DNA of 64,000 nucleotides from Nemertoderma westbladi (taxonomy: Eukaryota; Animalia; Xenacoelomorpha). Each line of letters starts with the position of its first letter. Position 1 is the first letter of the stretch. Shown here piece after piece: positions 26,499-62,311 of this stretch. The notes beneath the pieces are model-generated. The model was given only the letters and a program-made list of their open reading frames with translations. It made no database searches and was not told the origin of the DNA. The translations under genes were made by a program, and so were the position numbers. The stretch spans positions 1 to 64,000 of the forward strand of contig JAUCBJ010002727.1 in NCBI GenBank assembly GCA_032718475.1. The letters are read 5' to 3'.

Positions 26499-26502
26499 TA
26501 TA

Positions 26503-32043: not shown

Positions 32044-32442
32044 TCAGATTCTAGGCATATTGGTTCGTCTTCCCAGTCTGTTACGAATATAATTTTCGTG
32101 ATCTATTCTCGATTTATCGTTACGACGCCGCTGGGTATGATATTTAAATAGAACCATTTCCCTTTCGGTGTCTACATCGTCCGTATCATGTAAATCGATA
32201 GGATGGCCGGTAGTTAGGAGGTCCATATACGTATTATTACGATGCGTATAGCGAGCGGTGGATTTTCGATAGTCCAATTCACGCGCAAGTTGCTCTTGGG
32301 ACATCGGCGGTTCGATATAACGACCATCGTCCTCCGTAATGGTTGGATCGGCTTCACCGCGTATTAAGCTATCCACAAATGCTTGCAAAGGTAGAGTATA
32401 TCGCTCCCTAATACCAAGATCATCTTCTATCAACTCCGTCAT
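32044..32442 (-). CDS. Accessory ORF-A of element 2, unknown function, C-terminus cut by a deletion
   Basis: Nearly identical protein to 58452-58892 (MTELIEDDLGIRERYTLPLQAFVDSL...). Confidence 0.75.
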   Translation of the reverse strand: MTELIEDDLGIRERYTLPLQAFVDSLIRGEADPTITEDDGRYIEPPMSQEQLARELDYRKSTARYTHRNNTYMDLLTTGHPIDLHDTDDVDTEREMVLFKYHTQRRRNDKSRIDHENYIRNRLGRRTNMPRI

Positions 32443-34068
32443 ATCTGCTATCTGAGTTTATAAATATCAAATGAGTTTATATTTAGGCGAGCGGGCGTCG
32501 CTGCCTACTTCTCTTTGCCCCCGGACAGTGGGATTCTCAGCGCCGATGTACCGTCGTCGCGGTGTTTACGCCAACATGTAGCAACATCACGACAACGATA
32601 ACCGGCACAAGTCACTCCACTGTCCGTCCCAAAGGCTTGAATCCACTTTAGGTTCTTTCTATAGGAGAGTTGGGCTACTTTCACAATTGCGACTAGCTAC
32701 TGTAAACACACCTTAGCAGTAACATTCACCTATAAACGCACAAATTCCACACAACTGTCACCAATTGTACACATACAGGCCATTTGTCCGTTAGTCAGTG
32801 CCTTCCAGAATGTCACGTTATTACTGTGTATCCTTGGATACTAACAGTGTGCTATATTCTCTATGCGATGCAATGGGACAAGCTTTCTGTTGTTCTTTTA
32901 ACTTATTTCTAATTCTAGCGTGGGTGTTGCTATGGTGACATTATGGAATGCTAGCGGTAGAATTAGGGTAATTCTCATGCATACAGATCTGGGATGCTAT
33001 TTAATAATAATTCTTTAATTGTCAATATTCTCTTTATGCATGATTTTATTAATTTTATCGGCTATTGACTATATGTTGGAGATTCTCGCACTCTAATACA
33101 GTCAATAGGATGAATCTCCGCTCCCATGATCTATTAATTAATGGAATTTTGGGAATATTATAAATTGTACAAAATGACAATTTATGAAATTCATTTTAAA
33201 ATATGAATTTAAATTTATTCCCGTGAATTTTATTATTTGATGTTAAAATTGACACAATTTGATTCCAGAGCAGGTCTGGGGACATAGGATCCTTAATTCT
33301 ATGAAATTTGTCTTTTAAGAGTATCGGTAAGTGCTACAATACCTTAATTGACTAGAAATTTAAAGGATCTGAATTTTACAGATTTTACTAAATATTAAAT
33401 TAATATTTAAGATGGGCACCGATTTATTCCAGAGCTTGTCTGGGGACGTTAACCACTGATTCTAGAATTTGCCTTTCAAGTATATCGGTGGGTGCCACGA
33501 TATCTTAATCGACTAGAATTACAGATGGTCAAAAAGTTTAACAGATTTATTTGCGTTTTACGCTACTGTTATATGGACATCACGCTACTATATGTATTAT
33601 TTAATATAAGGTAGAAGAGCAATATCGCACGAAGCAATGTCAGTGTGAAGAGGCAAGTCGTTTCCAAGGTCTACCCAGAGCTTGGTTTAGCCGAGACACG
33701 AGGATCTGAATTTTGCATTCCTAATACTCTGCCTACCAATAATACTTGAATATAGTAGTGGCTTTATTGTACTTTAATAAGTACGGACATTTCATCTTAC
33801 TGTAGTCACGTATTTATAATATGATACGGACAGTAAGGAAAGAGAAAAAATAATTATTTCTCGCCGTCGCACTAAATATATTATAAGTAATTACGTACGT
33901 AATAAACACTAATATATTGCACTAATCTACTAAATAATCACTAAAATAACATTCTACTAAATAAAATTAAAGAAAACGATTATAATAAAATTACATAATA
34001 ATACATACATAAATATAAAATAAAAACAAATATAAAATGATATAGTCACACGCCCACTCCATATGTTA

Positions 34069-37000: not shown

Positions 37001-37271
37001 CAGGTTCTGGGAGTACAGGTGTCTCTATCTTTCTTTCCGCTTCTACTGTTGCCATTGCCTCTGCCGCCTTTCTTTCCGCTTCTGCTGTTGCCATTGTCTC
37101 TGCCACCTTTCTTTCCGCTTCTGCTGTTGCCATTGCCTCTGCCACCTTTCTTTTCGCCTTTGATGTTGCCATTGCCTCTGCCATCTTCCTTTCAAGACCC
37201 TGTCCAAGTCTAAGACTCATTCTAACACCTTCCAAAAGACTATCTGACAGTGCCCGTTTTGTGTCAGACAT
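34069..37271 (-). pseudogene. Gag-protease plus remnants of RNase H and integrase (element 2)
   Basis: Gag core, CCHC knuckles, LLDSGS protease. A 5-bp duplication (gtaca) frameshifts near 35935; RT and most of RNase H/integrase are deleted. Confidence 0.9.
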
Positions 37272-40200
37272 GTTTGTTTGTACAGTTGAATGCCTACTGC
37301 TATATTACAGTTAAAGCAAGTCTAGTAATTCAGTATCACTGTTAGCCTAGTAATTAATTACCGATACTGCTACTCAGTGTAGCGTGAAATATATATAATA
37401 TATTAGAATACCGGTATGCTTATAGTATATATATAAGTATTATTACAGACTAGATTTGTCACAGAGTACCGGTATATAATTTTAGCGCAAATATATATAA
37501 ATATATAATAGGCCTATCGTGAATACCGGTATGCAGCTTACACTTATAGTATATATAAGTATAATTATGGACTAGAATTAATTACAGAGTACCGGTATGA
37601 TTTCAGCTCAAATTTATAGAAATAAATATAATAAGCCTATGGTAAATACTGGTATGTCAATTATTTTAGAATAATTGAATTTCTGAATATTTTAGGGTTA
37701 CTTGGTTACTTTAACTTACTTTATTACCGTTATTTAAGCAGTAATCCAACTGATATTGAGACCTAGTTGTTGTATGGCAGGCCTACTATTTATAAATCGT
37801 TTGAGTTGATTTATAATATTTATATACCCGTTTAAAATGGGTTTTGTCAATATTTGAAATAAATGTTATTATTTCTGGGGGGAGTCACTACACAGAAGCT
37901 GTGCGCTCTCAGTGAAGTGCTATTTATTGGACACTAAAAACTGATAATTCTAATTTACCTAAGTTACTTAATACTACAAATTACATACAATTCGGGGTGA
38001 GATTACAATCTCTAAATAAACACAACAAAAATATTACGTACGAATTTTTAGGGTAATTTTACAGGAAGTCTACAAACCAGTCTAACAAAGGGTTAGATTT
38101 CTGGTTATTACAACTGACAGGGTACTACGGTATTTGAAATAATAAGTAGTAGTAAATATATTGCACTGTCCAGATAGGAAAATACCACCGCCTGACGACC
38201 TATAACCGTATCGCTATAGGTACTACGTTATGTATTACGGAGTGTTCCTACCTGTTAATTACAGCGGACTACCAGATCCAGCGTGCCTATTAACCACTTT
38301 ACAACACAAATATACTGCCTACACACTAATTACCTCGGAAAGCACTGTACACTAAACCCTAAATTAGATACAAGTACTGGTACAACAAATAATCAGTAGT
38401 TAAATATACTTGAACAGTTAAAAGAACCACGGCATCTGCTGGAGTGACTGGAGCACAAAGTCACCAGTCTTTACCTACGCCTAGCAGCCCGTGTAGTACC
38501 GGGGTTAATTTAACTATAACGGTATGTGTAACAAACACAATTACTGTAGGAATAAACTTGGGGACATGAATGTTGCGAATAATCGCATAAACTCTGAATA
38601 ATAAATATTACGCTACCCGTACAGAATACTCAAACAAAATACAGACCAAATGCTGGCAGACTACCACCAAGCCTAAATAAACTACTGTATGTGCAGATTC
38701 CAAAACGGTTAGTTAGTATGCGTTCTAACACGGTAGTACGACTTATTCTTTAAGAGGGGATTGACCTTACAGTTATGACTGCCCCAACTTACTAACTGGC
38801 ACTTTATCAGACAAACTCTACACAAGCAGCAATCTCTTCAGACCTAATAATAGCTAGACAACAATCTAGCCTACAAAATATCTGAGTAATAACTATTACG
38901 GTACCTGAACAGACCACACAAACAAACACAGGCCAAAACACTGGCAGAATACTGTCAAGCCTAAATAAACTACAGTATGTGCAGATTCCAAAATTGTTAG
39001 TTAGTATGCGTTCTAACACGGTAGTACGACTTATTCTTTAAGAGGGGATTGACCTTACAGCGATGGCTGCCCCAACTTACTAACTGGCACTCTATCGGAC
39101 AAACCCTACACACGCAGTAATCTCTCCAAACCCAACAACAATCCGACAACAGTCCGGCCTACAGTTATCCGAACAATCTGAGCAGACTTACACGTCTTCA
39201 GCTCAATATTAACTTACTAGGAAATAAAACTGACAGAAATAAGTAAACTATACAAAGGAATGAGGGGTGATCAATCCCTATTCCCCTGGCAGCCTACAAT
39301 ATACTATAGATCACAATCGAAATAATACTAATGTACTTCTGTACTTATACTGGAAGTACCGGTTAGAACAGTTGGGCCTACAGACCTACAGAAGTACCGG
39401 TTCTGATAGTTGGACCTACGGACCTACAGCAGTACCGGTTCTGGCAGTTGGGCCTACTGACCTACAGAAGTACCGGTTCAGGTTTACTGGTTGACCGGTA
39501 CTTTCAACTTTATTGCTTACTGCAATAAAGTCAATGACTGTTATTGTACGCGCTTTTGAAGACCTTTAGCAGTTTAACCTGCCAAAATTTATATGTCTTT
39601 TGATTTATAAATATACTTTAGAAGATGACAAATATTTAATACCAATAAACAAAACATTAGCAGAAGCCAGCCTAGTGCGCGTCCATTCACCCGCTGGATA
39701 ATCCCGGGAGGCTGGATTCTGTCGGCTTAGATTATTATTGCAGTGAAGCTTACGGTATTGTATTATTCGATTGATCGTTAATAATTAATTTCTGACTAAT
39801 ATTATTCACTTTCGGGAAATATTAACAGTTCCTTTTAGGACGTGGCGCTCTATCTAAGTAAACAGAGATATGACTTATACTAATCACAACGGTAAGTCGG
39901 TAAGGCTTATGATTCACGTATGAGGCGCATTCTTTAGGAAATGCTTAGTTATCAGCCACAATCATGCACACCACCGGTAACGCACAATACTGCTCACTAA
40001 TTTGCCGACCGTCAATGAATTTTATCATATATAAAGAGAATAGCAACGGACTCATGTAGGGCTTATCAAATAGCATTAAATTCAATACACACCACAATAA
40101 TATAAGTCGCAATCGCTATATATATAACCCGCCTCTCTAACCTGTAGTGTATCAAGAAAATTGGGAAATTTGGGTTCTTTATAAATGTTCTCCAAATAAT

Positions 40201-41701
40201 ATTCAATCCACTGATATAAGATATGACAACAGTAAAACATTAAGACGGTAGGTTAAGATATGATATGCACTGATATGGACCGATATGTGAGTTGTTATGA
40301 ACCGATAACAGTCATACGCTCTATAATCTTAAGCCTACTAATGTTTCTTTCTAGAGCCGTTGTTTCTGGCTTAGACAGCAATAACAACAAAGTATCAGTA
40401 AAAAACTGTAAGACTGAACAATCCCAGTATGATCGGCTCAAAGCTCCACATCGACAGAGAGAATCGCTCTGATTGGCTGAAGCCAAACAAAGAACCATGC
40501 GTCCAATGGCTGTTTCCATTTAAGCAACCAGCTGCTAGATGTCGTAATCTGAATCATCACGGCTAAGCTGTGTAAAAGTATTTGCCGTATTGCGGGTTTT
40601 TTGCCTTACCATGTCCGCTAAAACACGTATATAGCAGAATGACTTTTATGTCCGTTAAAACACCTGTAACGGTACCTTGAGGGCGAGGGGAATATATATA
40701 CAGTTAGGGAACCTTTTTAGAGTATTCCAGCGCCTGGGGGGAAACTGGATTGCGAAGCAAAGGGGCCAGTTATATCCCACAGAAGCTTTTACACGAACTA
40801 CAAATAAACAGTGGTTGGTAGGCCTACACGTGCAGTTGATACGTCGAAATCGAACTACAAATAAACACATACAGACATAGTTTTCCTGTTTTCCTATTGA
40901 TGATGATTATTTAATATACCGGCAACCGGTACACCCCCATCTGCCCATTGACACCCCCTGAACCAAGCAGGGTTCAGGGTAGTCTTCAGTTTTATCGCGT
41001 TCGATGGTGGATAGTCTAGAGTCTCGACAGTTCGACACTTGAGGTCGAACTTGTCTGCACCCACCTGCACATCAGGCTGCAGCTGCAACCTGTCTTGCTG
41101 CTATGTACTGTACTCGTACCACGTACTGCTGTACTGCTGTAAAGTTAAAGACTGAAACAAGGTAGCAGTACAGCAGTAGGGCTGTTTACATAATCTCGTT
41201 TGAATTTCCCTCCCATTCATTGGCGGTTGTATCCCCACCTCACTCTTACATGAAATTGAGAAGACAACGTAAAGTAAAAGTAAAAGTAAATTTTCTTCGG
41301 CGACTTATTTTCAGTGCGGTCCCCCCCAGAACTATACTCCCCAGAGCAAACTCCAGTACTCATTTAGCTACCACTTAAGGCAGAGAAGCGCCATGGCTGG
41401 TCCCTTTTACCCATTGGTTTATTCTCGGCTCTCAGAACGGAGAATGCCATGAATTATCGGGTCGAGAATTGCGTGTTCTATTGGGACGGCGCCGCGAAGT
41501 TTGGTGGATCCTGAGTTCCTGACAATATATTAAATATCATTAAACACCATTTTCCGTTCTAGTTTCAGAGTTTAAGTACAACGAACATTGCAGTGCCTTG
41601 CTTATCATTTAATTTACCTGCGTGTAATACGCTAATAAACTAATACACCCTAATAGGCCCTACTGCCTAATGCTGTAAAACTAATTCAACAGGACAGCAG
41701 G

Positions 41702-44923: not shown

Positions 44924-47900
44924 CATTCCTTTAACTCATTCAATAGAAAAGAATCAACAACATTATTATCATTCCTTTTACATTATTTTCACTGCAAATT
45001 TTGCTTATTGAATTCGTACAATGTAAATTTATACCTATGCATCTGTAATGAAACTTTGTTCATTAATATAGGTTGAACCGTGTTATGGTACATACATACT
45101 CTTACAACCTTGGTTATTACCTTTCAACTTTCAATCACCCCCCCCCCCCCCCTCCCCGCATATTACAAACCCCATACAGTCTGGGTACACAGCATTCTTA
45201 ATATGTAATATATATATATAATGCAGCTGCAATGCAGCATGCCGATCCTAGTAGTAGTAGGGTACTGGCAATGTAATTCAACCTGAATTAAGAAACAATA
45301 AGAGATCACCAGTTGTGATAAGGAACTCAGTGCTGAGACCGTTTGGGAATACACCACTTAAAAACCCCATGCGATATCGGCACTCATTCACTTATTGATT
45401 TTCTTTTCTATATACATTTATGTTTAATCAATTACATCAACGATCCTTGTACCAATATGGTGTGCAACTGAGAGTTTGTAACTGAGAGTCTGTTTACTTT
45501 GGTAGAATAATTGTGTAAAGGCTTTTGCGTAATTAGCCGGTTATTTTCCCCGTAAAGTACTCTGTAGTTGGTTTAACCGGCATAAAAGGCCGTGTCCTTA
45601 CTGTATTGTTGTTTTAGAGGACATAAAAGCCATTTCTTCTGTATGTGTACTTTAGCGGACATGATTAGCAATTCTATGACGCAATAAGCCGGATCCTCTT
45701 GAAACAGTGTAGATACCATGACGACGGCTAACAGCTGATATTGCCACGTAGAACATCCCTTTGTTCTTTGTTCTCTCTTTGTCCGGTCGACCAATCAGAG
45801 CGTTTTTTTGTCTCTGTGTTGGAGATGGTATATAGAAACTAGGGAAGTGAGTCAGTATTGCGACTTACATTAAGTGGTTTGAAGTGAATCTAATGCTATT
45901 TTATAGGCCCTACACGTATTGTCTGTTGTTCTCCTTATATGTGACTAAAATTAGTGAAGGTCGGCAGATTAGTGTGCAGTATTGTGCAGTATTGTGTATG
46001 ATTGTGATTGATAACGAAGCATCTCCTAAAGAATGCGCCATATACGTGAATCTATAGCCATCCCGTTGCGTCTGGTTTAAGTCATAACTCTGTTTATATA
46101 TTTAGAGCGCCACGTCCTAAAGGAACTGTTAATATTTCCCGAAAGTGAATAATATTGTCAGAGATTATATATCAAGATCAGTCGAATAATACAGTAGGTC
46201 TATCCCGCAATACGATTAGGCTTCCGAATCCAGTCTCCCGGGTATATCCAGCGGGTGAATGATCGCGCATAGACTGGTTTCGGCTAATGTAGTGTATCAA
46301 ATATTTGTCGTAGGCTAAAGACTATCTATTATCTAGAAGACATCCTAATTTGGCAGGTTAAACTGCTAAAGGTCTGAAAGCGCGAACAATAACGGATATA
46401 TCGTCTAATTGCAGGGTAGGCAATAAATACAGTTTAATATTGTTCTGGTAAGAACAATAACGAATAAAGCTTCTGTATTGCAGTAGGCAATAAAGCTGAA
46501 GTACCGGCATCCGGTACCCAGTAGGCCTGACTACCTAACCACCCGGACCGGTACCTACGGCAGTACAGGTACAGCAGTATTATTCGATTTTGATTATTAT
46601 ATACCAGTAGGTCTTAATAATTAATCGGGGATGCCTGGTTTTTATTGGGATTTTACTTAGGCCTATTTCTGTCAGTTTTATTTATTTGTAGGCCAATATT
46701 GAGCAGAAGGCGTGTAAGCCTGCTCAGATTGTACAGATAATTTGTAGGCTGGACTGTTGTCTAACTGTTGTTAAGTCTGAACGGATTACAGTGCATGTAG
46801 AGCATCTGTCCGATAAAGTGCTAGTTAGGAACGTAGGGGCTTCAAATGCTGTGAGGTAAACCCCCTTTGAAAGAATAAGTCATACTACTAGGTTAGAACG
46901 CATACTAACTAATCATTTCGGAGTCTGCATATACTGTGGTTTATTTAGGCTTGATAGTAGTCTGCCATCGTTTGGTCTGTACGTTGTTTGTGTAGTCTAT
47001 ACAGGTAGCGTATAATTCTTATTTAGATAATTTGTAGGCTGGATAGTTGTCTGGCTGTTGTTAGGTCGCTGAGGAAATTTCGGTGTGTGTAGAGTGTATG
47101 TCCGATAAAGTGCCAGTTGGGAACGTAGGGGCTTCCAGTGCTGTGAGGTAAACCCCCTCTGAAAGAATAAGTCGTACTACTAGGTTAGAACGCATACTAA
47201 CTAACCATTTCGGAGTCTGCATATACCGTGGTTTGTTTAGGCTTGATAGTAGTCTGTCAGTATTTGGTCTGCATTTTGTTTGAGTAGTCTGTACGCGTAG
47301 CGTAATATTTATTATTCAGAGTTTATGCGATTATTCGCAACATTCATTCCCCAAGTTTGTTCCTACAGTAATTGTGCTTGTTATACATACCGTTACAGTT
47401 AAACTAACTCCGGTACTACATCAGGGCTGCTCGGCGTAGGTAAAGACTGGAGATTTTGTGCTTTGGTCACTCCGGCAGATACCGTGGTTCTTTTAGCTGT
47501 TCAAGTATTTTTAACTACTGATTATTTGTTGTACAAGTACTTGTACCTAATTTAGGGTTTAGTGTACAGTGCTTTCCGAAGGCAATTAGTGTGTAGGCAG
47601 TATATTTGTGTTGTAAAGTGGTTAATAGGCACGTTGGTTCTGGTAGACCGCGGTAATTAACTTCTGGGTAGGAACACTCCGTGATACATAACGTAGTACT
47701 TATAGCGATACGGCTATAAGTCGTCAGACGGTGGTATTTTCCTATCTGGACAACGCAGTATATTTACTACTACTTATTATTTTCAAATACCGTAGTACTC
47801 TGTCCGTTGTAATAACCAGATATTCTAACCCTTTGTTAGGCTGGTTAGTAGACTTCTTGTAAAATTACCCTAAAAATTCGTATTTGTGTATTTGTATTTT

Positions 47901-48652
47901 TTTTTGTGTTTATTTAGAGATTGTAATCTCAACCCGAATTGTATGTAATTTGTAGTATTAAGTAACTTAGGCAAATTAGAATTATTTGTTTTAGTGTCCA
48001 ACAAGTAGCACTCCACTGAGAGCGCACAGCTCCTGTGTAGTGACTCCCCCAGAAATAATAACATTTATTTCAAATATTGACAAAACCCATTAAACGGGTA
48101 TATATATATTATAAATCAACTCAAACAATTTATAAATAGTAGGCCTGCCATACAACAATTAGGCCTAAATATCAGTTGGACTACTGCTTAAATAACGGTA
48201 ATAAAGTAAGTTAAAGTAACCAAGTAACCCTTAAAAATTCAGAAATTCAGTTATTCTAAGAATAATTGACATACCGGTATTTACGATAGGCCTATTATAT
48301 ATTTAGAAATTTAGGCTGAAATTATACCGGTATTCTGTAATTAATTCTAGTTAATAATTATACTTATATATACTATAAGTGTAAACTGCATACCGGTATT
48401 CACGATAGGCCTATTATATATTTATATATACTTGTGCTGAAAGTACATACCGGTATTCTGTGAAAAATCTAGTCTGTGACAATACTTATATATATATACT
48501 ATAAGCATACCGGTATTCTAATATATTAAATACATATTACGCTACACTGAGTAGCAGTATCAGTAATTAATTACTAGGCTAACAGTGATACTGAATTGCT
48601 AGGCTTGCTTAAACTGTAATATAGCAGTAGGCATTCAACTGTACGAACCAAC

Positions 48653-51600
48653 ATGTCTGACACAAAGCAAAACCTGTCGGACAGTCTCCTAGATACTACC
48701 ATCTGTGACCCAGACAGGAGTGTGGAACGTGAGGGACCGAAATTCAATTCACCTCCTACTGTAAGAAAGATCATCCCTCCAGTAGTAATATCAGACCCTA
48801 GGCTGGTTCAACACCGTAGGTCTATCATAGGCACTCGAGCTCAGGTCAAGCGGGACCAAGAAGCAGCAGAACAGCAACAACCCGTGAGCCAAGAACTTAT
48901 TTCTCAACGCCCCGACCACTCCAGTAGTGAGGATACTGTAGAGCTGGCACCCGAGCACGGCGCAAAGATGACAGATGTGGTTTATTCGGACCCCCTTCTC
49001 ATCCTTCCTGCAGCCGTACTGCACTAGGTTATTGATTGCGGTGGAAGAACACCAGATCGATTGGGCGAGAAATAAGCAATCGACTAAAGATAGTTATGCG
49101 GGATACACAAGGGAAGAACTGAAGTCTATTGTCGAGTCGCAATGGAACTTCCCCGGACCCGGACTCCCGTTTGATTTATCAGAAGCTGCCTGGGAAGATA
49201 TACACAGGATGGGAGTAACCAAGGAAACCATCGATCCAGCTGTGTGGAAGAGGTCCGCAGCTGGATACGCACAGGGATTCTTCAGCTCTATGGAGCGAGT
49301 AGAAAAACAACTGTTTCAACAACCCCAAGGACCTCAAGAGCAGGGACAACTGCTTTATCAAGTTAGAGAAAGAATTCTACGAATCAGGCTAATATTATCA
49401 GCCTTTGAGGAGGCTTCTAAAAGAAGACAAGACACGTCGTTGCAAGTTGCTGTAAAGACTTGGTTTCAAAAGGTGAGTCTCCAGGTTCAAGGAACAGCTC
49501 AGTGGAAAGCTCAGCTAGATGAGCACTCAACCCATGGAGAATCAACAGACGCTACATTTTCCCAAGTGGAGAGTGAAGCGACGGCAGAGAAACCACATAA
49601 GAGGGATGCCATTGACATTTATCTGTCAGACTATCAACGTTTTTTAGGTGATGAAGAGTTGAGGAGAAGGCTGGATGGACTTAGCCCTAATAGTGAAGGA
49701 ACCCAGCGTGTGTTGGACGCCATCGATGTGGATATGAGAGCTGCGAACCAAGCTAAATTTGATGAACAACTCCGCATCACTAGAGTCCAAGAAGAACAAG
49801 TGAAGAAAAAACGTATAGAAGACAGAAAGGCAGCAGCAGTGGCAGCAGCAGTGGCAGCTGCAGAAGCAGAAAGAAAAGCGGCAGTGGCAGCGGCAGAGGC
49901 AGAGGCAGAAGCGGAAAGAAAGGCGGCAGAGGCAGAGGCAGAAGCGGAAAGAAAAGTGGCAGCGGCAGCGGCCGAAGCGGAAAGAAAGGCGGCAGTGACA
50001 GCGGCAGAGGCAGTAGCAGAAGCAGAACGGAGAGCTTCTGAAGAAACCACCCAATTAGAATTGGAAAACATTCAGGAGAATCAAGACTGCATAAATAAAC
50101 AGTTAACAGCTAGTAATATGCAGATGATGAGTCGATCTACTCCCAAAAGACAGGGATATACATCATCTCAGGAAGGCGATACCACCGAAGGCAGAGGAAA
50201 TAGATCTCGTCTAAGCAGACGTAGAAGAACATCCCACCGTCAGAAATTGCCTGATCTGCCCCCAGCTGTTAGAAGGCAACTAAATGACACAGATTTAGGT
50301 AGTACAGAACCCACAGACCAAATAATTAAAATAGAAAGACTCCCTACTATAGTAGATGAGCCTGAAATAATTAGGCCTGTTCTTGAAATCACCCCTTCGG
50401 TGATAGAGACACCTGTGCTCCCAGAACCCACCTTTAAATTCCCTTTACACAGCACCAAATTATCTGTGCCTAGAGGAACAGCCCCTGAAGCAGTGTCGGT
50501 CCTGGACTCCGAGCGAAATATAAAGGATATATCGCCCGTAGTCCCTCGTCTGCCCACTACGACGTTGGCGGATCCCGCTTCGGCGGTTGATTGGGTAGAC
50601 GAGAGACGGCGGGGGATGGACATTCTCCTCGGAGAGATGAAGGAGAATCGAGTGCGCTCCTCCCTACAGGTCCGAGAGTTAGAAGGGACTGTTCAACAGT
50701 TAAGGGGAACCGTAAAGGAAAGTAGGTTAGAGTTGCAAGAAGTGCAGCAAAGTATCGCGCTAGAACGCGATAAATTAGTAAATTTACAAAGGGGTATACC
50801 ACCACCCCCGGTAACAATGTGTCAACCTGTTAGGTCTGAAGTATCTCATGCGCAAGGTGTGGAGCCTACACGCATATATACTGCTATCGAAGTAGAAACT
50901 CCTATAGTGAACCCTATTAAGGGTAATTATAGACCTGTTGATAATGATATTCCCTATAGACCTGATCATAATCCGAGAAATTTATATACCGATAACTCGA
51001 TATTAAATAACACGATGGCCCAAGAAAGTTTTACGCGTCAAATGGCTAGAACCGAAGCCCGGCAAGCCGTAAAGGTGGGAGAGATCGTCAAGTTCAATGG
51101 AGATGAGATGAAATGGTTACCTTTTAATGAATATTACAAAGATAACATACAGAACTCTGTGTTATCTAATGGAGAGAAACTTAGATTCCTCATCGAGTGC
51201 TTGGAAGGATCTCCCAAGTTAATGGCGTTAAAGTTTATTGGACATCCAGACGGATTAAGACAAGTTTGGGATACACTAAACATCAGGTATGGTAATAGGA
51301 ATAACATAGCTAAATATTTGTATGCAAAATTAGTAGCGCCCCGAAAGTTCATTAGCAGCGGGATAATAGAGTTTTCCGATGAGATTCAGGAGATCTGTAG
51401 ACAATTAGATTGGTTAGGTAAGTCTCATGAATATCATAGTTCTATGGTTATTGGAGCCGTGGCCTCTACTTTACCGAAGGGTGGAGTAGGTACACGCTGG
51501 GATAAGAAAGTGTTGTACATGATGGAACAACAACGACGAGACCCTACCATGGCTGATCTTATGTCATTCTTAGATGGAGAAGTGAAATTACAGCTCCTAA

Positions 51601-54600
51601 AACAGTCCAGAGAGAAGACACCGGAAAACAAGGTAAGTGAGAAACCCATCTCTAGGAGAAAGGTAACACCAGTGTGTTATACAGACGATGGCGAAAGCCA
51701 GACTTCTCAAGGAGAGGATAGCGGGAAAGACACTGAAAGATCTTATTATGTCAATAAAACGCCTAAAGACCAGGTAAGTAAATTCAAGTCTCGAACCAAT
51801 GACAGGAGAGAACAGGTAAGAAAAACTCCTCCTACGTCTCCCAAGAGAATTCAGGTGAGAAAGCCCGAAGAAAGAACGAGTGTGCACAATGTTATTCAAA
51901 ATAAGGTAAGTAACATCAAACCGAAATGTGCGCTATGTGACGGGACTCACCGTTTAAATATGTGTGATGAATTCCTGAAGAAATCATTAGCGGAGAGACG
52001 GGAAGTCATGTGGGATAAGCGGTTGTGTTATAATTGCCTCAGACAAGGACACCAACGGCGAACCTGTTACTCCGACACAAGGTGTGCAAAGTGCGGTACG
52101 AAACATCATATCTTGTTGCACACTGAATTCGAGCGAAATAGTCCGAGTCAGGTAAGTGATTCCGAACTACATGTCCAATTCAGTGATGTGAACGACACTG
52201 ATCAATCTGAGATGGAAGGATTCTATACGGACGAGTTCTCCGACGAAAACGAATCCTGTTACATGATAAATACCGCAGTGTATCGAGCACTCACGTATGA
52301 AAAAGATACAGACAGCGACCTCACCCTAACTACTTCTGATCGACAACCATCTTGGAAAGCGCCATCTTCCAATGTAGGAATCCGAGAATTTCCTGTAGTA
52401 CAGGTAAGGGTCCACGGACCTAAAAGGAGTTATGTAGTGAACGCCCTCCTTGACTCCGGTAGTACAGGAACATTCATCGACAAAGAACTAGCCGAAGACA
52501 TCTTTGCTGGACAACCCAAGTTCCGAACTAAGCTAAACATGTCAGGAATTATGCAGGTTTGGAAATCTACAGTAATCGCGGATTATTATGTAGGTGCGTT
52601 GTCCACCCCCCAGGATGAACTAGGAGAACATAGTATAAGGTCAGTAAAAATGGTGGCGATAAAGAACTTCGCTACCACCCAAGTGGAACCTTATAACTGG
52701 GATGAGGACGATTTCACCCAGCAGCTGGAAATACCTAGATTCAACACCGATTACCCTGGAGTGCAAATACTCATCGGTCAAAACGCGCATGAAGCGCTCG
52801 AGACATTGGAGAAACGGCCCGCTCAACCGCAACCACTACAAGCTTATGCGGGAAGAACTAGAGTGGGTTGGTACTTTACTGGCCCTTCCCGTAGAACTCT
52901 CATGGAAAGATTACCGAAAGACCAGGTATGTCAAGTGAGAGAATGGGAAGTCGAGAGCAGTGAGTTAGACGATCCAACTGAGGGAACACCATACTCCTCA
53001 GATAATGACGATGTCCACCAACTTTTTGACGAGGAGAATGCCATCGATCTCCTTAAGGAAAACGAGACTTGGCAAAACCAAGTGAACTTATGTCAACTCC
53101 TTCTTCCATCAGAGCGAGACGACTATAACGACGAGCTTAATGACGTCATTGAACGTTATAATGCCAAGACTCGGGACGAACACGCCGTACGATTCTTTAC
53201 TCAAGAGGCTGTAGAGCCCAATTCCTATGATAAGGCCCTATCGGTAGAGGAAGAAAGAGCCAAGCAGATCCAAGAGACAACTACACGTTTTCTTAAAGAT
53301 CAAGGTAGATATGAGATCGGTCTACCTTTCCGAAAGCGAGAACCAAAGTTCGTAAACAACAGACCCTTGGCGGAGAAAAGAATTGCTCAACTACATCGAC
53401 GCCTTACGGCAAATTCTTCAGCTAAAGAAATGTATCAAACGCAGTTGAAGAAGTTTATTAGCAAGGGATATGCGGAGCTAGTACCGGAAGAAACACCTAT
53501 AACTGAGAGAACGTATTATTTAACTCACCATTACGTTCCCAAACCCGGTAAACCACATGAGGTACGAGTGGTGTTTGACGGCTCCGCCCTCTATATGGGC
53601 CAATCCCTTAATTCTGAATTGCTACCCGGACCCAACTTACTCCAATCATTGTTGGGAATACTTTTAAGATTAAGACAATATTCCATTGCTTTCGCCTCAG
53701 ATATAGAAGGCATGTTCTTACAAGTCAAAGCGCTGGATAGGGATCGAGATAGCCTACGATTTCTGTGGTGGCCTGAAGGAGACCTCAACCAGAAACCGGT
53801 GGAGTACTGGATGACCATCCAAGCTTTTGGGATAATCTCGAGCCCTTCAAACGCCTGTTCCGTGGTGCGCACCACTGCGGATGACAACCGAGACGCCTTC
53901 TCTAAAGAGGTGATTGACAACATTAAGCGGGATATATACATGGACGACAATCTAAAGTCCCTTCCATCAGTCGAAGAAGCCATCGATGTCGCTAGAGGAA
54001 CGGTAGAGTGCTTAAAAAGAGGTGGATTTCGATTAACTAAATTCACCAGCAACTCCCGTGAGTTTCTGGAGTCGATCCCGGTAGAAGATCGAGGAGCGAA
54101 AGATCTGGATCTAATAAAAGATGATCTCCCAGAAACTAAGACCCTTGGTTTGAAATGGGACGCAGAATGAGATATCCTGTTTTTCCAACTAAAACAACGA
54201 GATAATCCAGTTCGGACTAAGCGGATTTGTTTAAGTATACTGAGCACTTATTTCGATCCATTGGGATTTATTAGCCCAGTTATATTGATTGCTCGGAGTT
54301 TAGTACAACAAATGTGGCTTGAAAACCACTCATGGGACGATCCACTTAAGGGAGAATTGTTAAAGAAGTGGATGAAATGGGAAGATTCTCTACCAGCCAT
54401 CGAGAACTTTATAATTTCCCGTTCATATTTTGGTCATGTTCTCCCTACGTATTCCTATCAACTCCATGTGTTTGGAGACGCCAGCGATATGGGAATAGGT
54501 ATAGTAGCCTACCTAAGGGTGGAAACTCCAGACGGAATCAAAGTCGCCTTGGTTACTTCTAAGGCATTGATAAACAATAAGTTGAAAGTTCCTCGAGCGG

Positions 54601-56825
54601 AGTTAAAAGCGGCTCTATACGCTACAGCCATCGGCCGGAATGTAACAGAACAGATCGACTATCCACTGGAGAAAACTGTTTATTGGACCGACGCTTTACT
54701 CGTGTTGGAGTATATAACCAATGAAGTCTGTCAGTTCAGCGTCTTCGTTACCAACAGAGTAGCCATTATACTCAGTCGCACAACGATGGATCAATGGAGA
54801 CATTGCCCCAGAACGATTAATCCAGCAGACATCGCCTCCAGGGGAGCAACTCCACAAGAACTGGTAGATACTCCAGACTGGCTAGGTGGACCCGACTTCC
54901 TCTACAAAGAAGAAGAAGAATGGCCTCCTCATCTTACTACAGCAGAGATTAGACAGGCCAAGGGAGCGGAGAAAGTCAAACCTAAAACTCGGGCGAGTAA
55001 ATCGAAGTTATTCAAACCCATGGTAGATCTGTCTGTACTACATATTTCCAGAGACGACGCTTTGGATCAGAAACCCACAGGCACCAATAAACTTGTTGTG
55101 GAAATCCGTGAGAAGGATTGGAAATCTGGAATACCAGACGTCTCGCAAGGACTCTCACCTCTTCTGCAGAGAGCGATACATCACTACAGTTCCTGGAATC
55201 GGCTCTGTAAGGCCGTTACATATTTAAAGAGATGTTTTCACCATCACTACTCCGGGATGAAGACCAAAGGTGATACCGCTCCAATAACATCAGTGCAGGT
55301 CCATGTTATTAAAGATCTTCCCAAATATAAGATACCCGACAGGTTTCTGAAGGAGAAGATCAGTTATCAGGAGCATGAAGAAACCAACAAGCAGATGCTG
55401 AGACTCCTGCAATGCTATGAAGATTCCGATAAGTATTTCCTGTTGTTGAGAAATCCACAGATGCGCTTAAGGGATCGTTTCTCTAGCACAATGATAGATG
55501 GGTTGATACGTGTTGGAGGAAGATTAACGAATGCTCCATTATCCTTTGACACTAAGTTCCCCATACTCATTAGAAATCTTGAAATACAAGTCAAGATGAT
55601 TGTAGATGTTCACAGCAAACTTTATCATGCTGGTAGGGAACGAGTTCTTAGCGAAATTTGAACTCGCTATTATTTTTATAAACCCCGTAGAGCTCTGAAC
55701 CAAGTTCTTAGGAACTGTATACCCTGTAGGAAAGCATTCAGTAGGCCTTTAACACAGCGAGAGGCAGAATTACCTAGGGAACGAGTAAGCTTCTATGAAC
55801 CACCCTTTACTAATACCGGTGTAGATTTATTTGGCCCTATTGAAGTATATCGTGCTAGGACTATAGTCAAGAGATGGTGTGTAATCTTTGTTTGTATGAC
55901 TTGTAGAGCTATCCATCTCGATATGGTGAACGATTTATCTACCAACAGCTTTCTATTAAGCTTACGACGACAGATCGCTCGCTTTGGCACTAGTAACACG
56001 ATGAGATCTGATAAGGGAACTAACTTCATTGGTGCCAACAATGAAATCAAAGCTTACGTCAAAGATTGGAACCAAAGACAGGTGGACGATCAGCTACGAA
56101 TAACAGCGTCTAGCTGGACCTTCAACGCCGCCGACGCCCCTTGGTGGGGAGGAAGTTGGGAGAGATTAATAAGAAGTGTGAAGACAGCATTTCACTTTAT
56201 AGTGCCTTGCCGTGCGTATCTCACCGACGAACTTTTGCGGATGTTAATGGAGGAAATCGCCGCCTATCTCAACGAGAGACCGCTTATGCCAGTCTCATCG
56301 AGTCCCGATTCCCTGGAAGCGCTAACACCCGCGCACTTCCTACTGAAGAAACCTGTAGCCATGCTACCACAATCGGAAATCACAGACTGAGACGAATACT
56401 GCCGGCAAACTTGGCAACTCATGCAGTTGTTATCCCGTCGTTTTGCTGACCATTTCGAAAAACATTATCTGCCCACGCTACAACTTCGAACTAAGTGGTT
56501 TGCGCAGCAAGAAAACGTCAGCGCTGGAGACATGGTTCTTATTGTGGATGTAGATCTTCCACGTAAGCGGTGGCAGACAGGTCGTATCATCGAGACTCAC
56601 ATCTCGGATGACGGTTTGGTGCGATCGGTAGAACTCGTCGTCATGCGACGTAACTTCAAGAAACCGGGAATTGTCTTCGAGACGCAGCAGCTCAATCGCC
56701 CAGTTGGTCGCTTATGTTTACTGGAAAGAGACAGAGAACTCTCCGGAAACTATGGGAGGCAAGATACTCTTCCCACGACCACCTCCCTAATCCAACAAAC
56801 ATCTAGGGACTCCCCAGCTTATTAG
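48653..56825 (+). pseudogene. BEL/Pao Gag-PR-RT-RNase H-IN polyprotein with one frameshift and three in-frame TGA stops
   Basis: LLDSGS protease; RVVFDGS, DIEGMFLQV and YMDD (RT); LHVFGDAS, VPRAELKAA and NPADIASRG (RNase H); TGVDLFGP, SDKGTNF and GGSWERL (integrase). Probable extra C near 48991-48995; stops at 54168, 55659 and 56388. Confidence 0.96.
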
Positions 56826-58451
56826 CATATGGAGTGGGTGTGTGACCATATTATTTTATATTTTTATCATTTTATACTTATGTACGTATTATTATGTAAT
56901 TTTATTATAATCGTTTTATTTAATTTTATTTAGTAGCATGTTATTTTAGCGATTGTTTAGTAGATCAGTGCAATATATTCGCGTTTATTACGTAATTACT
57001 TATATTATATATTTAGTGCGACGGCGAGAAATAATTCTTTTTTCTCTTTCCTTGCTGCCCGTATTACATTACGAATACGTAACTACAGTAAGATGAAATG
57101 TCCGTACTTATTAAAGTACAATAAAGCCACTACTATATTTAAGTATTATTGGTAGGCAGAGTATTAGGAATGCAAAGTTCAGATCCTCGTGTCTCGGCTA
57201 AACCAAGCTCTGGGTAGACCTTGGAAACGACTTGCCTCTTCACACTGACATTGCTTCGTGCGATATTGCTCTCATACCGTATATTAAATAATACATATAG
57301 TAGCGTGATGTCCCTTTAACAGTAGCGTATAACGCAAAATAAATCTGTTAAACCCTTTGACCATCTGCAATTCTAGTCGATTAAGATATCGCGGCACCCA
57401 CCGATATACTTGAAAGACAAAATTCTAGAATCAGTGGTTAACGTCCCCAGACAAGTTCTGGAATAAACTGGTGCCCATCCTAAATATTAATTATTAATAT
57501 TTATAAAATCTGTCAAATTTTAGATCCTTTAAAATTCTAGTCGATTAAGATATCGTAGCACTTACCGATACTCTTAAAAAGACAAATTCCTAGAATCAAG
57601 GATCCCAGTCCCCAGACACGTTCTGGAATAAAATTGTGTCTATTTAACATTAAATAATAAAATTTACGGGAATAAATTTAAATTCATATATTTCAATGAA
57701 TTTAATAAATTGTCATTTTATGCAATTTATAACATTCCCAAAATTCCATTAATTAATAGATCATGGGAGCGGAGATTCACTCTATTAAGTGTATTTGTGT
57801 GCGAGAATCTCCAATATATAGTCAATAGCCGATAAAATTCATAAAATCATATATAGAGAGGATATTGACAATTAAAGAATTACTATTAAATAGCATCCCA
57901 GATCTGTATGCATGAGAATTACCCTAATTCTACCGCTAGCTTTCCATAATGTCACCATGGCAACAACCACGCTAGAATTAGAAGTGAGTTAAAGAACAAT
58001 AGAAGGCTTGCCCCATTGAATAGCATAGGGAATAAATAGCGCACTGCTAGTATCCAAGGATACATAATAAATACAGTGACATTCTGGAAGGTACTGACTA
58101 ACGGACAAATGGCCCGAATGCGTGCAGTTTATGGCAGTTGTGTTGAATTTGTGCGTTTGTAGGTGAATGTTACTACTAAGGTGTGTTTACAGTAGCGAGT
58201 CGCAATTGTGAAAGTAGCCCTAACTCTCCACAAAGAACCTGCAGTACATCTAAGCCTTTGGGACGGACAGTGGAGTGACTTGTGCCAGTTATCGTTGTCG
58301 TTGTGTAGCTACATCGTTGGCGAAAGCACAGCGACGACAGTACATCGGCGCTGAGGATCTTACACTGTCCGGGGGCAAAAGAGGGGTAGGCAGCGACGCC
58401 CACTAGCCTAATATATAAACTCATTATAATATTGATAAACTCATAGCAGAT

Positions 58452-58892
58452 ATGACTGAGTTGATAGAAGATGATCTTGGCATCAGGGAGCGATATACTC
58501 TACCTTTACAAGCGTTTGTCGATAGCTTGATACGCGGAGACGCTGATCCAACTACTACGGAGGATGATGGTCGTTATATCGAACCGCCAATGTCGCAGGA
58601 GCAACTTACGCGTGAATTGGATTATAGAAGGTTCACCGCTCGCTATACGCATCGTAATGGTACGTATATGGACTTCTTAACTACTGGCCATCCTATCGAT
58701 TTACACGATACAGACGATGTAGACACCGAAAGGGAAATGGTTTTATTTAAATATCATACCCAGCGGAGTTGGAACGATAAACCGAGAGTGGAACACGAGA
58801 ATTCTATTCGAAGTCGGCTCGAGGGAAAGAACATGGAAGAAGGCTTGAAAAGACAAATAGAGGAGAACCACTGGAGAAGAGACGTGGGTTAA
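58452..58892 (+). CDS. Accessory ORF-A of element 3, 146 aa, charged, unknown function
   Basis: Protein conserved with the element 2 copy with many third-position differences; acceptor-like tagcag two nt before the ATG in both copies. Confidence 0.75.
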   Translation: MTELIEDDLGIRERYTLPLQAFVDSLIRGDADPTTTEDDGRYIEPPMSQEQLTRELDYRRFTARYTHRNGTYMDFLTTGHPIDLHDTDDVDTEREMVLFKYHTQRSWNDKPRVEHENSIRSRLEGKNMEEGLKRQIEENHWRRDVG

Positions 58893-59636
58893 TGTCCAGG
58901 GTCCATAATGTGAATAGTTTTCCCCGGGGCACGGGTGCTCGCGGGCGGTCTCCTTCGGGGGGCTGTAAATTTCTCTTCCTTCATCGTTTTCCTGCAATTA
59001 TTGTGATCAGTGTCACAATTAAAAGGCAAGAACGAATGATGACGTGACGGAAAACTTGTCCATTGTGGTATCTTATGGATACTACCCTATATCTTCCCTC
59101 CTCTTTACTTCCCTTATCCCTCTATACATCGCTATTGAAAATACAACATTATTCGTCCCACCTTCTCTTCCCAACGCGCTCGGAGCTTTGGGAAACGATC
59201 GACCAATCATTGCCGTATCGTAGTATTGATTATACCACCTCTTAATAAACCTCCCATCCCTTACTGTTAATCTGGATGCTCATATTGGTGTCCGCACCTC
59301 CTATTCATGTCACACTCTGTTGATATTTATGATATCAACTTCCACCCTCTCATTGTTGATTAGAAAATCAACCACCAATGATTTCCTTAAGTCCACTACC
59401 GTGATACAAGGACTGAAAGGACACGCGGATAGTTTGTGAACAACTGGTACCATTGTGTGTCATAAATCTGGTTGTTCACCTCCCTAATCACCAGGGATAA
59501 ATTCATTTGGAGATAGTCTTCGAACGTTTGTATCCTCCTACTGAGATCGTATTTCTGAATATTTCAGAATGCGAAATAGTTTTTTCCTCTGCTCTACCAT
59601 CGCTGTCGGAGAACATATTAGGCATACAACGGGAAC

Positions 59637-61355
59637 ATGGAGAACATTCCATACCCTTTCGTTGATACTCAGCTGATTGCTCCTTGGGCAGAAGGCCGAG
59701 GTTTCTTCCGCACTATGTATGCCAATACACCCAGCGGCATTACTAAAGTACAACGAACCTCCATCGGACATCTTGCCTTTCAAGAATACGGATGGAATTT
59801 CAAGGTTGGAAATCCTATAAATTACCAACAAGTATATGGAGATCATTATTCTCGTTTATACTTTGATGGACCATTGACCGCGCCTGGCGCCGTGTATAGC
59901 TTTATGAGTGTTCCACTTCGTCCCTCCTTAGCTATATACACGATATTTGAAAACGCAGCACTTGCCGGTTGGCTAGCCGATGTGTGCAGTCGTACCATAC
60001 GCGCCCATCCATTAATACTTGGAACCAAACTCGCCAAGTTAGATGAACACAATAAATTCATCCGCTTCGAATGTTTCAGACGCTTTCTGACTCCGTTCCG
60101 TAACGTTGATAGTCAGTTCAAGGACCGCGCTCTGACCAAACTCAGCCTAAGAGACTCAGCTGCGGAGAAGCTAAACAGCGCGGGATTTGCTCTCTTCCAG
60201 GACGTTTGTATACAGAACTTACATTCATCTGTTATACAAAGACCCCGAATACCCACGGGTTATTCTGTCGTGGAGGTTCAGACAGTGGGTCCGCTTGCGG
60301 AGACAGCCGCACCTACCTCAGCTATGCAATTGGAAGACGAACCAATCTGCTTAGAGTCTGAAGCGACCCAGCCTACAGCGCCCCGGAGCAGCGATAACGA
60401 CTACGTCTTAGAGTGGTATCAAGGTCCACAATGTCTCACTGCATACGATTATCGACACGCTAACTATGTTTCTCGAAAACGTTGTCGATTATGCACATCG
60501 AGAGACCATTTCACCCCCATGGACTCAGACGTACCCTGCTCCTATTTCCACGAACAACCGATGATGGAGATATATTGTGCGTATTGCAGACTTAATAACT
60601 CTCATATTTTTGCAGTCTGCCCCCAATTTATGACTCAATGCCACCACTGTCAACTTAAAGGACATGCCAGTTATAATTGCCCCTTTAATCGCGATTTAGA
60701 GAGCGTAGATGAGATGATTACCCTACGCTACATCCGAGCTTGGGAAGCGAACGCGGATTTACATTGTGAGTCCCGCCATCGCTACTACCCTGGACGCTCT
60801 TACGAGGGAGTTTACGCGTTCCATCCTTATTTATTCGCGTCTGTGGAACAAAAAACACGCACACCGAGTTACGAACTAATGAAGCGTGTTGGTGAGTGTA
60901 TTTCCACCAAATTTGTTCGAAAATACCTTAGGAACGTCAATCCTAACGATATTACTTCATACCATTTGATCAATTACATCCGTCAAGACCCTGAGTATGG
61001 CGATTTATTTATCAACTCGCACCCTGAGTTACAGGAAGTATCTCGACGGCCCTACGAATATCGAGCCCGAGAACGCGAGCTGGAAAGAACCATTAAACCA
61101 AGGAAGTTTCTCACCACTCACGGTCCGCCTACCGCCATTGTCCAGACGACCCATCAGGGACCCGTAGGAGCTGCTGTCCTAAGACGCGCCCTAAAGGCCG
61201 TTAGACCTCGCTCCACTGAAGTTGATATCGATCAACCCAGTACCTCAACCGGCGGATACACCGATCGTAATCCTAAACCTTCTGGTGCGGTTGTGTTGCG
61301 CCCTTCACCCAGGAGTTACAGCCCTCCTAGTAAAGTGGCTCGAAAAACTGCGTAA
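59637..61355 (+). CDS. Accessory ORF-B of element 3, 572 aa, triple CCHC-type zinc-knuckle protein
   Basis: CRLC-x4-H-x9-C, CAYC-x5-H-x4-C and CHHC-x4-H-x4-C. A ~31-bp deletion near 61342 frameshifts off the C-terminus that element 2 retains (ancestral stop at about 61431). Confidence 0.82.
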   Translation: MENIPYPFVDTQLIAPWAEGRGFFRTMYANTPSGITKVQRTSIGHLAFQEYGWNFKVGNPINYQQVYGDHYSRLYFDGPLTAPGAVYSFMSVPLRPSLAIYTIFENAALAGWLADVCSRTIRAHPLILGTKLAKLDEHNKFIRFECFRRFLTPFRNVDSQFKDRALTKLSLRDSAAEKLNSAGFALFQDVCIQNLHSSVIQRPRIPTGYSVVEVQTVGPLAETAAPTSAMQLEDEPICLESEATQPTAPRSSDNDYVLEWYQGPQCLTAYDYRHANYVSRKRCRLCTSRDHFTPMDSDVPCSYFHEQPMMEIYCAYCRLNNSHIFAVCPQFMTQCHHCQLKGHASYNCPFNRDLESVDEMITLRYIRAWEANADLHCESRHRYYPGRSYEGVYAFHPYLFASVEQKTRTPSYELMKRVGECISTKFVRKYLRNVNPNDITSYHLINYIRQDPEYGDLFINSHPELQEVSRRPYEYRARERELERTIKPRKFLTTHGPPTAIVQTTHQGPVGAAVLRRALKAVRPRSTEVDIDQPSTSTGGYTDRNPKPSGAVVLRPSPRSYSPPSKVARKTA

Positions 61356-62311
61356 ACGCCGTCCTCGTAAGAAAGACTAACTGTTTAGAGTATCTTTATA
61401 TTTTAGAAACTGTGATTTGTTATATTTTATAGACTTAAATCCCATTTTCTGGGAGCGGTGTAAAGGCTTTTGCGTAATTAGCCGGTTATTTTCCCCGTAA
61501 AGTACTCTGTAGTTGGTTTAACCGGCATAAAAGGCCGTGTCCTTACTGTATTGTTGTTTTAGAGGACATAAAAGCCATTTCTTCTGTATGTGTACTTTAG
61601 CGGACATGATTAGCAATTCTATGACGCAATAAGCCGGATCCTCTTGAAACAGTGTAGATACCATGACGACGGCTAACAGCTGATATTGCCACGTAGAACA
61701 TCCCTTTGTTCTTTGTTCTCTCTTTGTCCGGTCGACCAATCAGAGCGTTTTTTTGTCTCTGTGTTGGAGATGGTATATAGAAACTAGGGAAGTGAGTCAG
61801 TATTGCGACTTACATTAAGTGGTTTGAAGTGAATCTAATGCTATTTTATAGGCCCTACACGTATTGTCTGTTGTTCTCCTTATATGTGACTAAAATTAGT
61901 GAAGGTCGGCAGATTAGTGTGCAGTATTGTGCAGTATTGTGTATGATTGTGATTGATAACGAAGCATCTCCTAAAGAATGCGCCATATACGTGAATCTAT
62001 AGCCATCCCGTTGCGTCTGGTTTAAGTCATAACTCTGTTTATATATTTAGAGCGCCACGTCCTAAAGGAACTGTTAATATTTCCCGAAAGTGAATAATAT
62101 TGTCAGAGATTATATATCAAGATCAGTCGAATAATACAGTAGGTCTATCCCGCAATACGATTAGGCTTCCGAATCCAGTCTCCCGGGTATATCCAGCGGG
62201 TGAATGATCGCGCATAGACTGGTTTCGGCTAATGTAGTGTATCAAATATTTGTCGTAGGCTAAAGACTATCTATTATCTAGAAGACATCCTAAATTTAAT
62301 TAAACAAATTG

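Follow-up and report, generated by a model that had tools for sequence, protein, structure and literature searches.

What do long terminal repeat (LTR) retrotransposons of the BEL/Pao family carry in the interval from pol to the 3' LTR when this region does not encode an envelope? The question is raised by element 1, a BEL/Pao element of 16.8 kb (45514-62306, + strand) located in the window analysed here, that is, positions 1-64,000 of the forward strand of Nemertoderma westbladi contig JAUCBJ010002727.1 (GCA_032718475.1). The last pol frame of this element terminates at 56825 and the purine tract that precedes its 3' LTR ends at 61458, and the 4.6 kb between them carry two sense open reading frames (ORFs), as a first-pass annotation of this DNA had stated: ORF-A (58452..58892, + strand; 146 amino acids, acidic, isoelectric point 5.0, no cysteine and no known family) and ORF-B (59637..61355, + strand; 572 amino acids), which is composed of an unknown N-terminal part, an acidic linker, three zinc knuckles (60483-60680), a conserved helical part and a basic low-complexity tail. 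The module sits between pol and the purine tract both in element 1 and in element 2 (29668..40793, - strand), an internally deleted relative of element 1. Our analysis shows that this accessory gene region is non-envelope and under purifying selection, and suggests that ORF-B could encode an RNA-binding protein serving the element's own RNA.

The comparison of the two elements showed that ORF-A and ORF-B are both coding and are constrained as strongly as gag-pro. The differences at codon positions 1, 2 and 3 were 10, 5 and 24 in ORF-A (119 codons) and 41, 24 and 116 in ORF-B (334 codons). The Nei-Gojobori ratio of nonsynonymous to synonymous substitution (dN/dS) was 0.13 for ORF-A (bootstrap 0.06-0.28) and 0.10 for ORF-B (0.06-0.14) over the same codons, far below 1, compared with 0.16 for gag-pro (868 codons) and 0.8-2.1 for the remaining two sense frames. 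Zerofold versus fourfold divergence was 5% versus 28% in ORF-A, 9% versus 43% in ORF-B and 8% versus 27% in gag-pro. Purifying selection had been proposed from many third-position changes around fixed Cys and His residues, and the ligands agree with this, as all 12 of the knuckle Cys/His residues are identical in element 2, although five are encoded there by a different codon. Contigs of run X1 show that the N-terminal part of ORF-B, which element 2 lacks, is also constrained: 38 of the best-supported 40 of 99 X1 variant sites, which come from few contigs, fall within ORF-B, where 28 are at third codon positions (p 4e-7), 9 at first and 1 at second positions, and 34 of the 38 are synonymous. 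Run X1, presumed to be RNA by guess only, served for this comparison of copies and was not used as expression evidence, because its main joints repeat genomic deletions of element 2 and do not have GT-AG ends. The family has many copies, since the 869 X1 contigs on element 1 span mixed identities (116 at >=99%, 228 at 95-99%, 305 at 90-95% and 220 at <90%).

Element 2 has LTRs of about 1.25 kb with 1 difference and a 5-base target duplication, and is without most of the reverse transcriptase, ribonuclease H (RNase H) and integrase regions; within the alignable part its LTRs are about 77% alike to those of element 1. It retains a hairpin repeat (33227-33563), the start of ORF-A (32442-32074) and a remnant of ORF-B (32072 to about 31040). 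The claim that both ORFs are also present in element 2 is therefore only partly true, because this copy is without the segment corresponding to 58811-60331 of element 1 (about 1.5 kb, comprising the end of ORF-A, the spacer between the ORFs and the first ~230 codons of ORF-B) and the remnants are fused out of frame; the ORF-B remnant (its last ~335 codons) has no start of its own and neither ORF is whole. Both elements are recent insertions that would need help in trans. The segment containing ORF-B and the LTR is more diverged between the elements than gag-pro (60332-61472 versus 30903-32073 of the window), which suggests that element 2 is a recombinant of two subfamilies, with the exchange at the deletion joint.

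The absence of envelope features was assessed with a simple Kyte-Doolittle hydropathy scan rather than a trained predictor. The maxima over 19 residues were 0.46 for ORF-A and 1.19 for ORF-B and the N-terminal maxima over 9 residues were 1.46 and 0.87, which, as had been noted before, indicates no signal peptide, membrane segment or anchor in either ORF, and neither contains a furin-like RX[KR]R site. Searches of Pfam returned no env family at E-values up to 1, no family at cut-off for ORF-A or ORF-B, and no DEDDy exonuclease or SGNH hydrolase family, whether the query was ORF-A, ORF-B or the N-terminal part by itself, and full ORF-A and ORF-B had no PDB sequence match. No env or conserved host gene was matched in Pfam, in protein representatives searched with ORF-B or in PDB sequences, and neither termini nor a target duplication of a nested independent element appeared in the listed repeat families or self-alignments. 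A shared-word homolog search with ORF-B gave nothing new among 5635 candidates of 314-1001 amino acids, scans of viral contigs with ORF-B, ORF-A and the knuckle-domain profile confirmed no relative, and the atlas matches, all below 0.9, were generic CCHC proteins that serve as leads only. The predicted folds of the two ORFs are of low confidence (pLDDT 34 and 39), and fold searches with these models, which gave nothing at E 0.001, carry no weight either way.

A clue to function comes from the knuckle region of ORF-B. It had been described as a triple zinc knuckle, which is correct for the number of knuckles, but the first one is atypical (CX2CX4HX9C) and the second is a variant too (CX2CX5HX4C); the third has the canonical CX2CX4HX4C spacing. 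A match to PF13917 (E 0.002) fell short of the curated cut-off, and all three are predicted zinc knuckles only. An exhaustive phmmer search with ORF-B over 1.84 billion representatives gave a single match (E 2.8e-5), P0001, an unnamed protein of 633 amino acids on contig FAOW01000007.1 in which the knuckle domain is present twice. In the alignment (about 27-30% identity) the knuckle ligands are retained, as well as E, A, D, R, G and F residues over the next ~50 positions, so that both proteins have a common downstream motif, E..AD...R...G..F. When compared with shuffled sequences in which Cys and His were fixed, ORF-B scored 117 against the second P0001 repeat (shuffles 47 +/- 9, reached in 0/500), and 14/500 shuffles reached its score against the first repeat; the post-knuckle part alone scored 48 against the second repeat (shuffles 25 +/- 5, 0/500). 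These comparisons indicate that the ORF-B knuckle domain has a real remote homolog, and the domain is undescribed as far as the Pfam copy used goes. P0001 is also intronless, whereas its N-terminus is different: it is unlike the N-terminus of ORF-B and ORF-A, as 90/500 and 368/500 shuffles, respectively, score equally well. Shared-word searches with residues 295-633 of P0001 found only P0001 itself among 813 candidates, and with a four-sequence profile of the domain gave nothing new among 109 candidates of 74-282 amino acids.

The contig of P0001 (3685 bases) contains the intronless ORF (124-2025) followed by candidate LTR, primer-site and gag-start DNA (2045-3685), which is made up of a purine run, a TG...CA stretch of ~1.1 kb, a TGG and the start of an acidic ORF. 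It is possible that this downstream DNA is an LTR, a primer site and the start of a gag gene, on a contig that shows no pol and no second LTR, and an LTR-element context is only suggested for P0001. Furthermore, when the domain profile was compared with PDB sequences at E-values up to 10, all 13 rows were Lin28, Air2 or retroviral nucleocapsid/Gag proteins (best E 0.006; Lin28 and Air2 at 0.006-0.09), and with the knuckles alone the best match was Air2 (E 0.08), including its five-residue middle loop. Air2 (ZCCHC7-like) and Lin28 resemble ORF-B in their closely spaced CCHC knuckles, but these matches are weak and confined to the knuckles, and neither protein matches the post-knuckle motif shared with P0001. 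Beyond the knuckles there was no significant similarity to Air2/ZCCHC7, Lin28 or CNBP orthologs among the 1.84 billion representatives or the PDB sequences.

The region between pol and ORF-A (56826..58451, + strand) is a constrained noncoding stretch. When compared with element 2, 128 of 1608 aligned bases differ (8.0%), which is below the divergence of fourfold sites of the ORFs (27-43%; Fisher p from 3e-4, for ORF-A, to 7e-24). This stretch contains a tandem repeat of ~165 nucleotides (57341..57666, + strand; units 57341-57503 and 57506-57666) whose units are 76% identical in the self-alignment and are each predicted to form a hairpin of ~80 nucleotides and a 5-base-pair hairpin. Element 2, though deleted, keeps both units, and the four units of the two elements share a predicted 31-pair hairpin plus a 5-pair hairpin, in which 6 of 36 pairs are changed on both sides, 5 further pairs show a change on one side, in every case into or out of G-U as read on the sense strand, and 95.8% of cells pair, against 29-46% in slid registers. 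The paired fraction or the covariation score was reached in 1/500 shuffles. Fold z-scores of the four copies were -4.0, -2.7, -3.8 and -2.1, and in a 48-window scan sense z-scores below -3 were found only at 57300-57449 and 57600-57749, with two antisense windows likewise below -3. The repeat had no Rfam match, and a search of the window and the P0001 contig with the hairpin model recovered only the four copies from which it had been built and, besides these, a single match at E 0.31. The covariation is suggestive, not proof with four related sequences, and the tandem repeat is a candidate cis-acting RNA element.

Motifs upstream of the ORFs bear on how these could be expressed. There are 19 ATGs between the pol stop and ORF-A, which makes plain scanning unlikely and a separate message or internal entry necessary, and the ORFs could be expressed from a spliced or internally started message. 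A motif scan found five donor-like motifs in the 5' leader, four of them alignable to element 2, including a candidate splice-donor-like site (48204..48211, + strand) that is identical in element 2, and a TATA-like motif and an acceptor-like AG, also candidates only and both kept in element 2, are located directly 5' of the ORF-A start (58412..58451, + strand). Acceptor-like sites shared by the copies had been pointed out at ~58162 and 58449. Both AGs are indeed kept in element 2, but they are weak evidence because the whole stretch is 92% identical and there is no pyrimidine tract (7-8 pyrimidines in 15 bases).

A further point is whether ORF-A and ORF-B are two genes or one. The spacer between them (58893..59636, + strand) is stop-rich in all six frames and, judged by X1 contig depth, nearly absent from other copies of the family; it may be either intergenic DNA that has diverged or a foreign insert within a single gene. 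It had no Rfam match (four chance-level matches in 45400-62400, none within the spacer), which gives no support for a ribozyme or an intron-like insert; as broken coding DNA it gave 0 Pfam families on six frames, and as a repeat of other window DNA it had no match in the window. ORF-A and ORF-B could be the two terminal pieces of a single, longer gene that has an interruption in element 1 and a deletion in element 2. This structure would be compatible with either the RNA-binding or the anti-silencing reading below and is a possibility that we hold tentatively, against the odds; neither window copy would then show the natural protein. The two ORFs share a frame, with 16 stops counted from that of ORF-A up to ORF-B, although a common frame has a 1-in-3 chance. 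The spacer is almost uncovered by family contigs (depth 0-3.3 over 58814-59611 versus 6-36 on the flanks), contigs from other copies depart from element 1 at 58812 and at 59632/59649, and those few that do map to the spacer run off at their termini; however, most copies may just carry the deletion of element 2, no contig bridges the spacer, and holes in contigs alone prove nothing. A fast-evolving spacer is also odd next to a noncoding stretch that is 92% conserved, and element 1 is broken elsewhere too, yet the spacer edges have no inverted termini and no clean target duplication.

Taking these data together, we give about even odds (roughly 0.5) to the reading that ORF-B is an element-encoded RNA-binding accessory protein acting in trans on genomic RNA, with the hairpin as candidate site, and aiding export, stability or packaging. 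According to this reading, the zinc-knuckle protein would bind RNA of the element that encodes it, the probable site being the duplicated predicted hairpin located just upstream of the ORFs, the bound unspliced RNA would be helped to leave the nucleus, survive or be packaged, and deleted copies would keep the hairpin as a cis signal while being served by protein from other copies. The earlier proposal of an RNA-binding accessory factor thus receives some support, if weak, from the knuckle profile matches to Lin28 and Air2 and from the constrained duplicated hairpin upstream; RNA binding by ORF-B is suggested by the CCHC type of its knuckles and by these same matches, and both the hairpin as its target and the step affected are conjectural. 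In deleted copies the hairpins are retained whereas the protein genes are lost, which is the pattern expected if a cis signal depends on protein supplied in trans, and the conservation in both copies of the donor-like leader site and of the acceptor-like site before ORF-A also counts in its favour.

Several observations weigh against this RNA-binding reading. The PDB matches can be obtained with any CCHC array, the knuckle region lacks a strongly basic character (net charge of -1 to 0 per 50 residues), similarity of the post-knuckle part by itself to the first P0001 repeat is not significant (191/500 shuffles), and ORF-A offers no functional clue. Four sequences, which represent two unit types, underlie the hairpin and its structure was derived from the same four, and the count of pairs changed on both sides was not significant (reached in 71/500 shuffles). 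In simple retroviruses such cis elements work solely together with host proteins, according to the part of PMC3856414 available to us, so the hairpin alone does not imply binding by ORF-B. Additionally, fourfold divergence between the elements is higher in ORF-B than in gag-pro (p 0.001), and the 3' part of the element has therefore a partly separate history, probably by recombination between subfamilies. A more specific version is that a Rev/RRE-like pair (RRE, Rev response element) evolved independently in Belpaoviridae, in which the triple-knuckle family would recognise the duplicated hairpin and let the unspliced genome pass nuclear retention or surveillance, the domain family would have spread among unrelated invertebrate LTR elements (the element 1 family and the P0001 contig) and deleted copies would keep the hairpin and borrow the protein; we regard this version as unlikely.

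Other functions have to be considered for the same data. ORF-B could be an anti-silencing factor or interfere with RNA decay, its knuckles mimicking or competing with host decay or small-RNA adaptors and the hairpin being a separate signal read by Gag or the host. The Air2 match to the knuckles alone, middle loop included, is in line with this, but it is weak and there is no direct sign of a host partner; the N-terminus of P0001, which precedes its two knuckle domains, resembles by eye a degenerate DEDDy exonuclease, an impression that no Pfam or PDB match supports, and ORF-A and the ORF-B N-terminus are unlike it. Rotifer elements carry DEDDy ORF3s for which a silencing role has been raised (PMC5408684, in the sections available); on balance an anti-silencing role seems improbable here. 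The position of the module, which is that of env, and the retroviral nucleocapsids among the profile matches would also fit a second nucleocapsid-like structural or chaperone protein, or a function in cell-to-cell movement in place of env. This proposal is quite doubtful because Gag has knuckles already, ORF-B is not significantly similar to it (best E 0.05), and the known env substitutes, sORF2/FAST among them, depend on a membrane segment, which neither ORF has. Juxtamembrane features of sORF2/FAST are mentioned in the accessible portion of PMC11952523. Lastly, the capture of ORFs by LTR elements at a place downstream of pol does occur (PMC6431247, available in part) and synonymous divergence varies along element 1, so the ORFs could come from a host gene that was captured or from an independent element nested here, and be carried as passive cargo. 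This is already largely refuted and very improbable, since cargo would drift, yet selection here matches that on gag-pro in strength, the searches described above matched no conserved host family, no termini of its own were seen, and the module is at the same place in two elements with LTRs as different as those compared above.

The structure of element 1 is that of a BEL/Pao element, as Pfam matches above cut-off to DUF1759 (E 5e-11), Peptidase_A17 (E 7e-37) and DUF5641 (E 2e-21) are present. The gag-pol region (48653..56825, + strand; defined by the ORF list, translations and Pfam domains) follows the order gag, protease, reverse transcriptase, RNase H, integrase, in which the protease match falls below cut-off and reverse transcriptase and integrase were read from the translation, and it is broken in this copy by a frame change near 49.0 kb and by in-frame stops at 54168, 55659 and 56388. 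The 5' LTR (45514..46388, + strand) starts with TG, and its end was placed by homology to the element 2 LTR end; the 3' LTR (61459..62306, + strand) begins with TG at 61459, after a purine tract (61451..61458, + strand) that is identical in element 2, and the pair is 99.88% identical over 839 bases. The same 5-mer is found 5' of the 5' LTR and 3' of the 3' LTR and is likely the target duplication, and the hallmarks of the family (LTRs with TG...CA, purine tract and short target duplication) are clear in element 2. The 3' LTR end (62294-62311) is without the last ~37 bases of the 5' LTR end and a different short sequence precedes the apparent target duplication. Neither element has a typical primer-binding site after its LTR end, and a TGG motif is found within the LTR end instead. 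The 5' leader of ~2.3 kb is constrained too (10.5% divergence; 46664-48687 versus 37237-39241) and contains internal tandem repeats with units of ~290 and ~120 nucleotides, and gag has an expanding Ala/Glu/Lys-rich repeat with unequal unit numbers in the two elements (49803-50060 and 36990-37193). Regarding size, the label giant is justified by the 15-kb upper bound in the available part of PMC3118150, which 16.8 kb exceeds, but not by the 20-kb internal criterion in that of PMC6431247.

The rest of the window contains satellites, several LTR elements and intronless-looking eukaryotic genes. A third BEL/Pao-like element, unrelated (13311-20454, - strand), has 565-base LTRs that are 99.8% identical and encodes gag-protease only, with no match to ORF-A or ORF-B. 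Housekeeping-type genes that appear intronless lie among the LTR elements and satellites (24101-25000, 27412-29127, 41657-42487 and 63327-63998); they code for an S15-family ribosomal protein, RRN3, a short NAD synthase (~260 amino acids) and an IDI-like NUDIX enzyme, and are either host genes or retrocopies. The NAD synthase gives the impression, judged by length alone, of the prokaryotic ammonia-dependent type. Young satellite arrays with units of 28, 73, 56, 45, 25, 46 and 38 bases occupy 525-9000, 20500-23000, 26400-27000 and 43700-44900.

The way in which long, intron-containing genomic RNA of LTR retrotransposons leaves the nucleus and escapes host surveillance is understood in few elements of invertebrates, and in the literature searched, part of it available only as partial text, CERV of C. 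elegans Cer1 was the sole trans-acting export factor found for an invertebrate element. No zinc-knuckle ORF downstream of pol in BEL/Pao was found in that literature, which does not extend to many subscription papers or to Repbase and GyDB. The conserved knuckle protein, with a domain that the Pfam copy used does not cover, and the conserved duplicated hairpin would make a defined protein-RNA pair in a family whose extra ORFs had mainly been known as envelopes, and if this is true the non-env knuckle accessory gene would be a new kind of helper gene for BEL/Pao; if ORF-B is only a generic RNA chaperone, it would be a modest addition to the known ORF3 types.

An extra accessory ORF is said to have been reported for Cer7 by Bowen and McDonald in 1999. 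The assumption that an additional 3' ORF will as a rule be env is too narrow, since non-env ORFs in this position are described for Cer1 (PMC10309623) and for rotifer elements (PMC5408684) in the accessible text of these papers, both outside BEL/Pao; within this family, the available part of a survey mentions only env as extra ORF (PMC3118150), and that of PMC9094657 mentions overlapping ORFs in C. elegans elements. The env genes of belpaoviruses (Atlas, Cer13-like) share family and genomic position with our module but encode phlebovirus-like glycoproteins with membrane anchors (PMC9094657, same portion), unlike ORF-A and ORF-B, which show no glycoprotein or anchor feature. ORF3 of Juno and Vesta from bdelloid rotifers is also located downstream of pol, non-envelope and proposed to have an auxiliary role in RNA handling; these ORFs, however, are DEDDy exonucleases or GDSL esterases of non-BEL clades with mostly neutral variation within the genome (PMC5408684, as far as its accessible text goes), whereas the ORFs described here matched no domain of this kind in Pfam and are under strong purifying selection between subfamilies. 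Regarding the hairpin, the constitutive transport element (CTE) from Mason-Pfizer monkey virus (MPMV), the direct repeats (DR) of Rous sarcoma virus (RSV) and Rev/RRE are likewise structured or duplicated noncoding elements in the 3' part of the genomic RNA, of which CTE and DR act through host proteins and RRE through a viral protein (PMC3856414, in the text available), while the hairpin described here is predicted only and has no Rfam match. The closest functional precedent is CERV, which is also non-env and encoded in the interval from pol to the 3' LTR. According to the accessible part of PMC10309623, it belongs to a Ty3/Gypsy element, is produced from a spliced mRNA, is needed for the export of genomic RNA and has a C4-type loop, a ring-forming domain, a GTPase-like domain and exons shared with gag. 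ORF-B contains three knuckles of the CCHC type, its conserved motif is another one, and, judged from these descriptions rather than from a direct sequence comparison, it could be analogous to CERV but built differently.

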